The notes below the pieces were generated by a model, which saw only the letters and a list, made by a program, of their open reading frames with translations, was not told where the DNA came from and did no database searches. The position numbers were made by a program, and so were the translations under genes. A stretch of 64,000 nt of DNA from the NCBI GenBank assembly GCA_030141605.1, contig JAQGDQ010000313.1, positions 124,001-188,000 on the forward strand, read 5' to 3'. Of this stretch, positions 31,401 to 36,500 are shown in pieces (the first letter of the stretch is position 1; each line of letters begins with the position of its first letter). Origin of the DNA: Tubiluchus corallicola (Eukaryota; Animalia; Priapulida).

Positions 31401-33534
31401 ACTATTTTCTTATTGAACTCTTATAGAAATGCGTGAGAAGTATCAAAACAGAGAGCTTACAGCATTGGAAGTGGTGCTGACAAGCAACGCGAGTTTCGAA
31501 TTTAACACATAATTTACAGCATGAACGACATCTATTTTCTAAACATTCTTTCGTCAAATTCTCCCTGGCGGTTTTCTTTTAATTTGGCGTAGTGATAGAT
31601 TTAGTAATAGTTCTCTTATGTTCACAAACTTTCGCTTCTGTACATTAACAAATGTCACAATGCATTATTGAAATGACTGTTCCGGTCTAGTTGTCTTGGC
31701 TGTCGTAAAATACGAGCTCACATACAGCATTATTCTGGTCAATAGTTCAACTTATACCATTTACACTTCTTTTGTTGTTTGCTTTAATTCCAGTCATAGA
31801 GCGCTTAACAAAGATTAAACATGCGGTTAATTTCTTAATGAGTTTTCAAACACATTATCGGTTTGGTCAACAATGGTAAACTCTCCTGAATGATGTGTTA
31901 TTCAGGTGGTTGTCTGAAACACTGATCTAACTGTAATAGTTTACTGCGTAACTCACCTATTCAGCTCTATGCAAATTTCTTTTCCTGCTACGACTGTTTC
32001 GTGTGAGATTCCACCAGCCCTCAGATGTACCTGTCGTGTTGCGCCACTGGAAAAAAATTATTAAGGCATCCGCCTAACCATTTTAATTTTTCTTGCCGCG
32101 GCATTGACTTTATATCACACTACAACGACACATCTATAAAAGCTTCACGCAACAAAAAACCTCTTTTTATGACGTTGGAGTAAGTCCTTTAGCCAAACAG
32201 CTAAAAGAAATAATGCAGCCTGTGGTGCAAATGTATTTTAGCTCTATGCCTTATAATCCCCGGTTGTTAGAAATAGTTTCAAAGATCAGCAAAGGTTGGC
32301 CAGATTAGTTTCTCTTTCTCTAAGACCAAAACATGTGAAGTCTGTGGGCAGTGAAAATAAATTAAAGTTCGATTATTCACTTTTCGAGCTTCAAATATTG
32401 TTTATCTACCTCATCACACATCATCAGGTAGTGGCCTCAGTTCTATAAGCTAATGATAACCAAGAACTAATATTTCTGCGATATTAGACGTAGGATGTGC
32501 TCAAATGAAATGCTTCTCGTCATCATAGTTTACTAATTTAATATCCATAGTTTACTAGCAAATTTAATAAAATAAAATTATTTCACATGATAATTGCTAG
32601 CTTTACTGTATCCAAGTACAGAATGTCGTTGACCAGTAAGGATCCATAGAACGTATGCAAACTCACCAAGGATTGCCTCCTCTACCACCTCCTCTCCATC
32701 CTCTTGATTCCACGTTGTTGTTCCTGCCACGCCCATTATACTGGGCTGTTGTCATGACAGCCTAAAACGACAAAAAATAGCATAAATTATGCACGAATGA
32801 AGAAGAATAAATTATGACAAGCGTGGCACAGTAAATATCTTATGCTACCTTTTTAGGTACGCTTTGAGCACTAAATTGTTCCATTAATTTTTATTATTAT
32901 TATTATTATTAGTAGTAGTAGTAGTAGTAGTAGTAGTAGTAGTAGTAGTAGTAGTAGTAGTAGTAGTAGTAGTAGTAGTAGTAGTAGTAGTAGTAGTAGT
33001 AGTAGTAGTAGTAGTAGTAGTAGTATCATTATTATTATTACTATTATTATTATGTTATTAATTGTTATTAAATTGTCCTTATTAAACAACACAACACATT
33101 AGATTAGATCTATACCTTCAATTACATCCTTTATCACGCATCTTTTCATGTAGTACTCGCCGTGTTTCTTCAAATGATTAAGTATTTTTCACGCCCAGAT
33201 ATTTAGACCTACGCAATGCCGAGACCCAGGCAAGCTTTTCTATGTATATATCCTAGGCCATAACTAATGAACATTTGAAAATTTTTAGCCTTTTGGCTGT
33301 ATTTCGTTATTGCAGGTTTGGGCGCTGATTTAAATATTCTGAAGTCTATATATATATGTAGTAAAAATGCTCAAAAGAAAAATGAAGTAGCAACCGTATG
33401 AACATCGATATATATTCTAGCAACCGTATGAGCATGGATATATGGCTATATATACTAATATACTATAACTATATACCATAATTATAACTTACCATAACAA
33501 TTAGTAGCAGTGGAGTAAAGTTGGACCACTTCAT
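22495..33534 (-). CDS. PADI: Peptidyl-arginine deiminase (vertebrate-type three-domain PAD_N/PAD_M/PAD catalytic), ~702 aa, 16 coding exons, with N-terminal signal-peptide-like leader
   Basis: Exons 33534-33493, 32761-32667, 32046-31957, 29131-28987, 28173-28042, 27869-27713, 27385-27290, 27180-27023, 26409-26194, 26051-25941, 25282-25137, 24915-24765, 24284-24191, 23945-23851, 23394-23256 and 22736-22495. All are GT-AG and phase-compatible, giving 2109 nt open. Hallmark motifs: [106 protein letters not shown]. Confidence 0.95.
32910..33025. repeat. (TAG)n microsatellite flanked by (TAT)n
   Basis: Perfect TAG run in the first coding intron of PADI; explains the poly-L ORF. Confidence 0.97.
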
Positions 33535-36500
33535 GTTTACCACGTTCTTTCTGAAAATAAAAACCATGTAATTTTAGCTACATAATTATTTTTCAGGGCT
33601 TTTCAAAGAATTTTAATTAATATAACAATACGGAGGTAATAAGTGATTAGTCTTTATAGAACGCCTACAATTGGTATGTCTAGCTTGATTTAGAAAAACT
33701 TTAGTTTTGACTTCATTGTGTCATTTATCAAATAGAAAGAACAATATCAAACAAGTATTCAGTTTCAAAACTCTTTGCTGTAATTATGAATAAAAATTAT
33801 ACACATACTGAATGAAATCGCCGAATGACTATACTTCAAACTCACAAACCAAAATTGATAATTGAATTTTTACTAGGTCATAGCAATGAATTCAAACTAG
33901 GCGTCTGGTGACAATAACGATTATTTCAATAATAAAATCTATGTGCAGTTGTGCATGCAGGCATTATCTAAAATACCAAGTGTGGCAGATTTGCCTATGG
34001 CTAGACGTAGGGGGTTAATGAACGACAGCGGCGTACAGAATAAGAATGTAATCAATTATTATAAGCTTTATTGTTCAATTCCTCATCAATGTAAGTAAAT
34101 GTAAAAGAATAAAATGCAGCGGATCAGTGCTGCTAGCCTGCTTAATGCTTACCGTGAAATTCAGCAAGCATGTAACTATGCAAATCATTTACTTAAGAAA
34201 TCAATCAAGCAATAATCAATCATAATCTGAAATTTTCGGCTCTAGGCACGATTGTAGGATTACGTTTGCAAAGAGGCCGATTCGAAATAACGGAGCTCTT
34301 TTGCACTTGAATGAAGTTTCTTTTAAACATGACAGATTAAAATTTGCTAAAAATCTAGACGTGCGTTATGGGCAGGCCAACGTCGCTTGAAATGCCAAGT
34401 CCTTGTTAGATGCACGTGATCCGCGCCACAGTTTTCTAATAGACATATCATCATAGACCTTAATTTAAATCATATGGAGAAACAAAAAATGAATCTTTTT
34501 ACTTTATTTCACTTACATACGTGAAAGACTGTGTAAAGTTTAGCCAATAGATATACAGAATGTGAACGTTTTGAGTTCGAATCCCAGCAGATGGTGAAAT
34601 TTTTCAAACTTTCTATTATTTAACTTTGACTTATTCGGCATGTTGTTGTGAATTATTTTTGCACAATTTGACCACAGTTTTCCAACATTTAACGTAAGAA
34701 CCTGTGCAATGTTGATGGTTGGCGGGACCGCAATCTTGCTTATAATAGGTAGAGCAAGACTTTGAACCAGTAAAAGCGTTCTTGTCACATTCGGGTGGAA
34801 ACAGCCAGAATACCGATGTCAGCAAGTGTTAAACACGGCGATCCCATATCCATTCGCTGCTAACCATTCTTAACTTCGGTCGTCAAGCACATGAACATTC
34901 TGCTGTTTGTATCGCCGCACAATAATTCACTTACTATTATATTATTGCAATTATTATTATAAAACTAGTTTTACGTTTTAGTGGCGTAAGTTGTTGCTTT
35001 GATAAACTGGTAATAAAGTGAAAAACAGAAATCAGTGGAATTATATACATTTATACATTTATGTGTAGAAGCAGTTTGCTTAAATCAACACATACTTTAT
35101 CGCATGAGGATTTTAAAAGAGGAGAAACGCGTACTTCAATCAGTAAAAACTAAACAGTAGAAAATCTCGACAAGAAGGCTGGTTTAATTTTACCTGTAAA
35201 AGTTAATTGCTACCTTCAGGTGATGATCAAGGGTGACCCCAAGTTATACATTCATAAATTTTTATTAATTTTAAAAGGGCTTACTGTGCTGCTGAATGTA
35301 GTTCCTCAGTTGTGCTAATGTAATTGCTACACCGAAATATGAAATTGCAGTACTATAATGACATTCCTATTGAGTTTACATGAAAAACAACCCTATAAAA
35401 CCGCGCGATTTTTAAAAGTACATTGGCTTCTCAATAACAGTTTTATTAGACGGCTCCACGCTAATACTAGTAAGTTATTCTTAGAGTAACGACATCTAAG
35501 ACAAGAAAGAGGAAGCATTGTAAGGTAATGCCCCTTTAACTTCAAATAATTTATTTAAATAAAAAATAATTATAATTAATTAATGCTCCACGCTTGCAAC
35601 TAAACGTCTTGTCTAAACAACATTTTTAAACTACAATAGCCTAACATAGCAAACATATAATTACATTTTGTAAAAATTTCTATAACTATTTCATAATATA
35701 ATTAATACATCTAAACGCAAATCTCGTTACACATCGTTAAGAATCTAAAAGTGGAAAGTGAAAGGTCCGAAACGTGTATTTCTACGGTAAGCTTAAACTT
35801 TTGTAACCACAAAAGCAAAACACCTTCCTCACAAAAACGAACTTGAAAACCACCAAGTGTAAAACTGTCGTTTTTCGTGAGTACTATTTTCATGCAATAT
35901 AAATATACCTTGTCCCACATTAAATCTGCTTATTGTTATAAAAAGCATAGTATAACGATTCGTTATAAATCGGCCAAAACACAAAAATCACTTTTACTTC
36001 TATTATTAATGACCTAATTTGAAATTCTTGGATGTAGATACATGCGCCTGCATGAAATAATAATAGTTCACGTAACCCTATTCATCAGAAACATCAGTAG
36101 GAAAATTACTGTGACAATTTGTTTATAAATGTAGCAATTTTTAAGAATAATAAAAGAGCGAATTAGTTAATTGAATGCTCGCACGATAACTATGCGTGTT
36201 TGGATGCATGCATGCCTGTATCATGTTTATATCATGTTCACTACTGCATATTCAGCAAATTATTCACAATTACTCTGTATAGTATATATGATTTATAAGA
36301 ACACTTTATAATATGTTAATTAAAATGAACTTTTTGCCTCGTTAACTCACACTTAACTTACCACGGACATTATCTATATCCGTTTACGTGGTTACAAATG
36401 GAAGAACTAGTAATACAAGTAAGACTAGTGATATTACGTTTAGACTGTAGAGTCGTAAAAATGTGTAGCTGTTGATTTTTGCGCAAAAGACCTTTATGCG

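Follow-up and report, generated by a model that had tools for sequence, protein, structure and literature searches.

The 64,000-nucleotide stretch of Tubiluchus corallicola DNA analyzed here (the window; contig JAQGDQ010000313.1) carries on its minus strand a gene for a peptidylarginine deiminase (PADI), an enzyme that citrullinates proteins, modelled as 16 exons encoding 702 amino acids from 33534 to 22495. Two extra exons at the 5' end of this gene, A and B, encode an N-terminal extension of 45 residues, and in a close relative these leader exons are genuine and are spliced through exon C onto the enzyme. The leader exons likely encode a cleavable signal peptide. Hence, the best reading of the gene, which we consider slightly likelier to be right than wrong and which stands ahead of both an intracellular form and a secreted pseudo-enzyme, is that of a secreted, active PADI.

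Leader exons and their splicing

The 702-residue model is a single frame without a stop, and all 15 of its introns have GT-AG borders. A sequence-only reading of the window had proposed exons A, B and C, with a spliced translation and a start codon in the context AAAC-ATG; the coordinates, the GT-AG borders, the compatible phases, the translation and the start context were all found as it gave them. The acceptor ending at 33551, which it had also pointed out, is present and pyrimidine-rich, and the proposed match of exon C to the vertebrate PADI N-terminus was recovered, since eight vertebrate PADIs start at model residue 46. The window is animal DNA with a G+C content of 34%, and a tblastn search within it returned one PADI copy.

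Two sequencing runs matched the window. Run X1 behaves as DNA, and run X2 is guessed to be RNA, a guess backed by its spliced joints; X2 is one run of one study, with four contigs at about 90-96% identity to the window. These contigs are confined to exons and skip the introns at the predicted borders. This is illustrated by a contig of 235 letters (depth 101.6) that spans exons C and B and skips 32047-32666 exactly, giving the B-C joint, and whose 63-letter loose end is exon A sequence. A second record, matching this contig in length and depth, aligns to 33492-33550 with nine differences, and its loose end is exon B. Both junctions predicted from the letters, 33493>32761 and 32667>32046, are thus found in the spliced contig of the relative. 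Taken over the whole gene, joints were seen for B-C, C-4, 4-5, 5-6 and 9-10, and loose ends match A-B, 10-11 and 15-16, so that run X2 supports 8 of the 15 introns. The other seven lie outside its cover, which is absent over exons 7, 8 and 11-15 and over 33551-38415 and is uninformative there. An additional exon considered at a loose end at 26407 was dropped, as most of that loose end resembles what we take to be the adapter of a small-RNA library.

It could be argued that exons A and B were read by chance, or are part of some minor or different transcript, exon C being the start of the functional gene, given that the junctions are backed by one run whose RNA status is guessed. However, exon C contains no ATG and its 5' end is an acceptor, and the sole contig over that end shows the splice to exon B, its depth of 101.6 being similar to the 78-96 found on the other exons. 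This explanation is largely refuted and we regard it as very improbable.

What could be compared of the leader is also preserved in the relative. Among the 30 letters of exon A that could be compared by residue, five changes lead to one conservative replacement (I12V), the remaining four of the nine differences and the relative's M1 lying outside them, and in the first 30 letters of exon B two changes lead to M17T. Within the letters compared, a diverged sequence has therefore retained both the hydrophobic core and the site Thr-Thr-Ala-Gln. Elsewhere in the coding sequence, the 29 differences listed comprise 15 synonymous codons versus 11 replacements. The run X2 contig continues for six unfitting letters past 33550, which an upstream exon or an adapter may explain. 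Separately, the intron between exons A and B contains a perfect trinucleotide repeat of 39 copies (32910-33070).

Predicted export of the enzyme

The leader has a lysine at position 2, 22 uncharged residues and a best 9-residue hydropathy of 3.32. Its best 19-residue hydropathy is only 1.16, so it reads as a short cleavable peptide and not as a membrane anchor. None of 213 vertebrate PADIs reaches a 9-residue hydropathy of 3.0 within its first 40 residues (the highest value, 2.92, belongs to an odd partial model), and PAD4 is described as having no secretory signal sequence and an unknown exit route (PMC10542449). Within the window, hydrophobicity at the level of the leader occurs in 11 of 712 ATG-started open stretches of 20 codons. 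Cleavage is predicted after A20 (Thr-Thr-Ala), leaving residue 21 as the N-terminus, and the linker that follows (residues 21-46) holds five Arg, eight Gly, five Asn and four RG motifs. The start codon M1 has an A at -3. At the C-terminus, neither a motif for retention in the endoplasmic reticulum nor a membrane segment was found. Besides, the protein has 6 cysteines, whereas 176 vertebrate PADIs have between 8 and 22 and a leader-bearing amphioxus paralogue has 5-6, and so low a number would fit, weakly, an oxidizing compartment. By hydropathy heuristics the sequence shows the n/h/c pattern of the signal peptide proposed earlier, which run X2 keeps in the letters compared, and the protein would probably be secreted.

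According to the reading that we favor, translation would begin at M1 and residues 1-20 would be removed after Thr-Thr-Ala. The enzyme would enter the endoplasmic reticulum, would be released from the cell because it has no membrane segment or retention motif, and would citrullinate extracellular proteins, among which the mucus, adhesive and venom proteins named in the sequence-only reading are purely conjectural candidates. Calcium is at millimolar levels along the secretory pathway and in body fluids, and would keep its calcium switch always on. The Arg/Gly-rich linker would form a flexible tail, which may be the first substrate of the enzyme or a removable pro-piece.

Several points weigh against such an export. 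The signal-peptide call was built on hydropathy heuristics and on the -3/-1 rule, the usual rule for signal-peptide cleavage, and the h-region is short (nine residues). The RNA support comes from one run of one study, made on a relative whose identity to the window is about 90-96%. The mature chain has one N-glycosylation sequon (N115, in the region of exons 4-5) versus a vertebrate median of four, and low cysteine counts are also found in leaderless bacterial homologues (5-11), in the second amphioxus paralogue (7-8) and in Owenia (7). A catalytic cysteine is prone to oxidation outside the cell. Calls of signal sequences in this family also demand caution, since mouse ePAD was predicted in 2005 to have one (PMC1215517) and PADI6 is nowadays described as cytoplasmic (PMC9174705).

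Some of the same features of the 5' end can be explained by an intracellular protein encoded by genuine leader exons. Either an upstream coding exon would bury the hydrophobic stretch, or translation would start mostly at M14; the product would be a PADI of the cytosol or nucleus whose RGG tail binds RNA or undergoes auto-citrullination. Leaky scanning may make both forms. Indeed, the 16 nucleotides preceding M1 are open in frame, and the six unfitted letters lie beyond the acceptor at 33551. M14 has a G at both -3 and +4, a strong context that is kept in run X2, and a start there would yield a leaderless form. RG/RGG motifs typically occur in RNA-binding proteins inside the cell and are known PADI4 substrates in intracellular proteins (PMC9174705), and Priapulus has one PADI model with a leader and one without. 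On the other hand, the core upstream of M14 is kept in the relative, where its changes are mostly synonymous, and M1 precedes M14 with its own A at -3. Two of the 25 candidate upstream donors could give an in-frame ATG, whereas 23 could give none; no choice was possible among the 25. Moreover, a short N-terminal extension would not be expected to abolish a signal peptide. An intracellular protein is, in our judgment, unlikely, but it has to be kept in mind more than any other alternative.

Catalytic and calcium sites

The domains PAD_M (PF08527) and PAD (PF03068) scored above the Pfam cut-off on the single exons 6 and 9. Exons C, 4 and 5 gave no Pfam match singly, and they align end to end with PAD_N of vertebrates and amphioxus. 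The catalytic tetrad is kept, with D378, H498, D500 and C683 corresponding to D350, H471, D473 and C645 of PADI4, as are the substrate residues W375 and R401 (W347 and R372 of PADI4). Using the ligand list of PMC5445078, calcium site 1 (Ca1) is kept in all three ligands (Q377, E381, E438), Ca3 in all six (N185, D187, D189, D198, D209, D212) and Ca5 in both (D201, E284). Exons 9-11 carry W375, D378, R401 and the Ca1 ligands, together with an altered Ca2 site and N417.

All three Ca2 ligands are changed (E351Q, D369E and N373A, that is, Q379, E398 and A402 of the model), one Ca4 ligand is changed (D388N, at N417), and R374 is also Asn. The earlier claim of a catalytically intact enzyme was hence confirmed for the tetrad and for Ca1, Ca3 and Ca5, but it failed for Ca2 and for one ligand of Ca4. 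In run X2, the listed differences of exon 10 are synonymous (one is unlisted) and a loose end keeps N417, so the relative appears to share the Ca2 and Ca4 changes. According to PMC5445078, a triple Ca2 mutant of PAD4 has a kcat/Km of 1.12 versus 25.4, about 4% being retained, and a K0.5 for calcium of 1.23 mM versus 0.28, about four times higher. Calcium sites 2 and 4 are called exclusive to clade Ai, which groups animal and cyanobacterial enzymes, and fungal and actinobacterial PADIs also depart at these two sites (PMC8826395). The window protein has the Ca1, Ca3 and Ca5 feature of clade Ai and lacks its Ca2 and Ca4 feature, a departure that we read as secondary because the introns are shared with animal genes.

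From these changes, the protein could be seen as secreted but weak or dead, binding arginine-rich proteins or calcium in the manner of the amphioxus leader paralogue that has no catalytic Asp. The loss of every Ca2 ligand, of D388 and of R374 would fit this idea, as would the long branch of the protein in every tree and the D350N, D369S and N373Y changes of the leader-bearing amphioxus models. It is opposed by the complete tetrad, the retained equivalents of W347 and R372 and the retained Ca1, Ca3 and Ca5 sites, by the residual turnover of the PAD4 triple mutant, and by bacterial homologues that keep the tetrad while carrying E351Q (P0207) or D388N (P0168). We regard a secreted pseudo-enzyme as quite unlikely, a little more so than an intracellular protein. 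The likeliest interpretation of the residues is an enzyme that would work at millimolar calcium without needing a sharp switch; since calcium is always high outside the cell, site 2 may have been allowed to change.

Relatives of the gene and its surroundings

The window protein is 38-40% identical, over about 635 columns, to eight vertebrate PADIs. With exon 16 as query, 107 proteins were obtained and every named one is from a vertebrate; with exon 9, the yield was 0 of 12 candidates. Vertebrate PADI1-4 (e.g., human PADI2 and PADI4) have the same three domains (PAD_N PF08526, PAD_M and PAD), the tetrad, the Ca1, Ca3 and Ca5 ligands and, as in PADI2, an acidic Ca6 loop; the window protein differs from them by its signal-peptide-like extension, its altered Ca2 and D388, and half the cysteines. 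The three-domain cyanobacterial and two-domain bacterial and fungal PADIs (Cummings et al., PMC8826395) have the catalytic core in common with it, whereas the window gene has animal-type introns. Four quick trees were built, and in all of them the window protein has a long branch. One tree places it inside the animal clade (support 99), as sister to Priapulus (support 95), and the other three place it outside, with long-branch warnings; a single animal clade was not rejected (p-AU 0.33). Introns were compared through the ends of insertions and deletions in gene models. All 13 ends from 10 amphioxus indels, at 6 of 6 distinct positions, lie no more than one residue from a window intron, where the background is 5%; across the 225 models from animals, 22 of the 64 distinct ends lie within three residues, where it is 13.5%. 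From these shared positions, the gene is an animal PADI orthologue descending from a single intron-bearing animal gene. An independent transfer from bacteria, which three trees would suggest, was rejected on the shared introns. A metagenome scan returned one locus from 458 matches, a chance match to the antisense strand of a bacterial gene.

Leaders were then compared among PADIs, as the sequence-only reading had proposed, and were found in amphioxus and Priapulus models and in none of the six scored microbial homologues nearest the animal clade, including Cyanothece HAC64388.1. Export signals occur in some distant members, among them the fungus Drechmeria (ODA79767.1) and a member of the Planctomycetota (MCX7703529.1). 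Of the three amphioxus paralogues, the first is leaderless, the second has a myristoylation-like start and the third has a stem and a long hydrophobic leader. The last (Branchiostoma paralogue 3; XP_078571531.1, CAH1250156.1 and XP_019620885.1), known from database models of three species, resembles the window protein in having a hydrophobic leader and a stem before PAD_N, an altered Ca2, 5-6 cysteines and matching introns. In contrast, its leader is longer, anchor-like (19-residue hydropathy 2.2-2.4) and unrelated in sequence, and it groups with another amphioxus paralogue and carries D350N. A common origin of the two leaders was rejected, as they have no sequence likeness and no tree puts the two proteins in one group; the leaders appear to have been gained separately. 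As an observation of its own, the replacement of the catalytic Asp by Asn together with an anchor-like leader makes these Branchiostoma proteins (P0113, P0264, P0265) a candidate secretory-pathway pseudo-enzyme, of which no description was found in the literature. The second amphioxus paralogue (P0266, P0268, P0270-P0272) starts with Met-Gly-Lys-Cys, which we take to be a myristoylation/palmitoylation-like motif, so that amphioxus PADIs may occupy three compartments.

The PADI of Priapulus caudatus has the highest likeness in the trees (42% identity). Its isoform X1 (XP_014670176.1) has a signal-peptide-like extension of 47 residues and an intact tetrad, and isoform X2 (XP_014670183.1) has no extension; isoform X1 is itself a prediction, and its leader, a run of Ile and Thr of low complexity, may have arisen as an artefact of modelling. 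Unlike those of the window protein, the Priapulus Ca2 ligands (E/D/E) are near canonical. The Priapulus form aligned in PMC8826395 is the leaderless isoform X2. Our invertebrate survey covered the best 150 of 1325 representatives and the best 120 of 1542 hits; among the matches listed, invertebrate PADIs came from Branchiostoma, Priapulus and Owenia only, and Saccoglossus and others may be further down. For Owenia fusiformis there is a complete PADI model (CAH1782438.1; P0108) that has all three domains and keeps the catalytic and calcium residues intact, although padi4 is stated in PMC12153100 to be absent from the annelids studied and from all other invertebrates; for echinoderms, the consulted text of PMC8464700 reports no PAD genes. 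The Owenia extension is hydrophilic and has no hydrophobic core, and a short GRG-x-NN stretch that it has in common with the linker was not used as evidence.

Secretory targeting of the PADI fold thus has precedent in database models, from amphioxus, Priapulus isoform X1, a fungus and a planctomycete. The leader is therefore less singular than the sequence-only reading implied, since leaders exist in the amphioxus and Priapulus models. A literature search, which mostly could not reach subscription papers, found no publication describing an invertebrate PADI that is secreted or bears a signal peptide. The accessible portions of PMC8826395 (with its supplement) and PMC11016909 make no mention of signal peptides. 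Tentatively, PADI may have been re-routed to secretion repeatedly and independently in invertebrates (in Tubiluchus, in the amphioxus paralogue and perhaps in Priapulus), high calcium loosening the Ca2 switch each time, and the window protein would then be an active, dedicated extracellular citrullinating enzyme checked by its own arginine-rich tail. We hold this wider proposal to be possible but doubtful.

Coordinates of the gene are collected in Table 1. Upstream of it, from 64000 to 49600 on the minus strand, lies the 3' half of a multi-exon gene that bounds the PADI upstream region. MyTH4, FERM and SH3 domains were recognized in it by eye (the SH3 match is weak, E 0.014), it looks like the tail of an unconventional myosin XV, and it includes a Gln-rich exon (57854-57506). 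Downstream by 5 kb is an intronless ankyrin-repeat frame of 345 codons (17460-16426, minus; Pfam Ank, E 3e-39). Two minus-strand open frames of 154 and 174 codons (12147-11686, beta-trefoil-like by eye, and 9681-9160) had no notable Pfam match, and an exon at 5031-4603, also minus, has a weak claudin/PMP-22 match (E 0.011).

Table 1. Parts of the Tubiluchus PADI gene, in positions of the window
Feature	Positions	Strand	Basis
16 nucleotides before ATG, presumed 5' untranslated region	33535..33550	-	acceptor ending at 33551, frame open; run X2 contig reaches exactly 33550
Exon A, residues 1-14: predicted signal peptide, its basic n-region and the larger part of its hydrophobic core	33493..33534	-	42 nucleotides, ends in phase 0
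Exon B, residues 15-46: predicted signal-peptide end, Arg/Gly/Asn-rich linker	32667..32761	-	95 nucleotides, ends in phase 2; run X2 joints
Exon C, residues 46-76: PAD_N start, alignable with the initial ~31 residues of vertebrate PADIs	31957..32046	-	alignment; run X2 joints
Exons 4 (29131-28987) and 5 (28173-28042): PAD_N remainder, PAD_M start with PADI2-like acidic Ca6 loop	28042..29131	-	alignment; run X2 joints
Exons 6 (27869-27713), 7 (27385-27290) and 8 (27180-27023): PAD_M, Ca3/4/5 ligands	27023..27869	-	Pfam PF08527, E 8.8e-13 on exon 6
Exons 9 (26409-26194), 10 (26051-25941) and 11 (25282-25137): catalytic domain	25137..26409	-	Pfam PF03068, E 1.4e-9 on exon 9
Exons 12 (24915-24765; H498, D500), 13 (24284-24191), 14 (23945-23851) and 15 (23394-23256)	23256..24915	-	gene model and alignment
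Exon 16: catalytic C683 and stop codon	22495..22736	-	matches human PADI1-4, E about 1e-28 to 1e-25 (solved structures)

For human PADIs, the route out of cells and the source of enough calcium inside them are described as open (PMC10542449, PMC9174705). The Tubiluchus gene adds an intron-bearing invertebrate PADI to the three invertebrate species with PADI named in PMC8826395. If the reading as a secreted, active enzyme is true, it would provide a natural enzyme with which to study how a PADI folds, resists oxidation and depends on calcium in the extracellular space. With such an animal PADI, built for secretion, citrullination outside cells could be regarded as a planned function as well as spill-over from dying cells.

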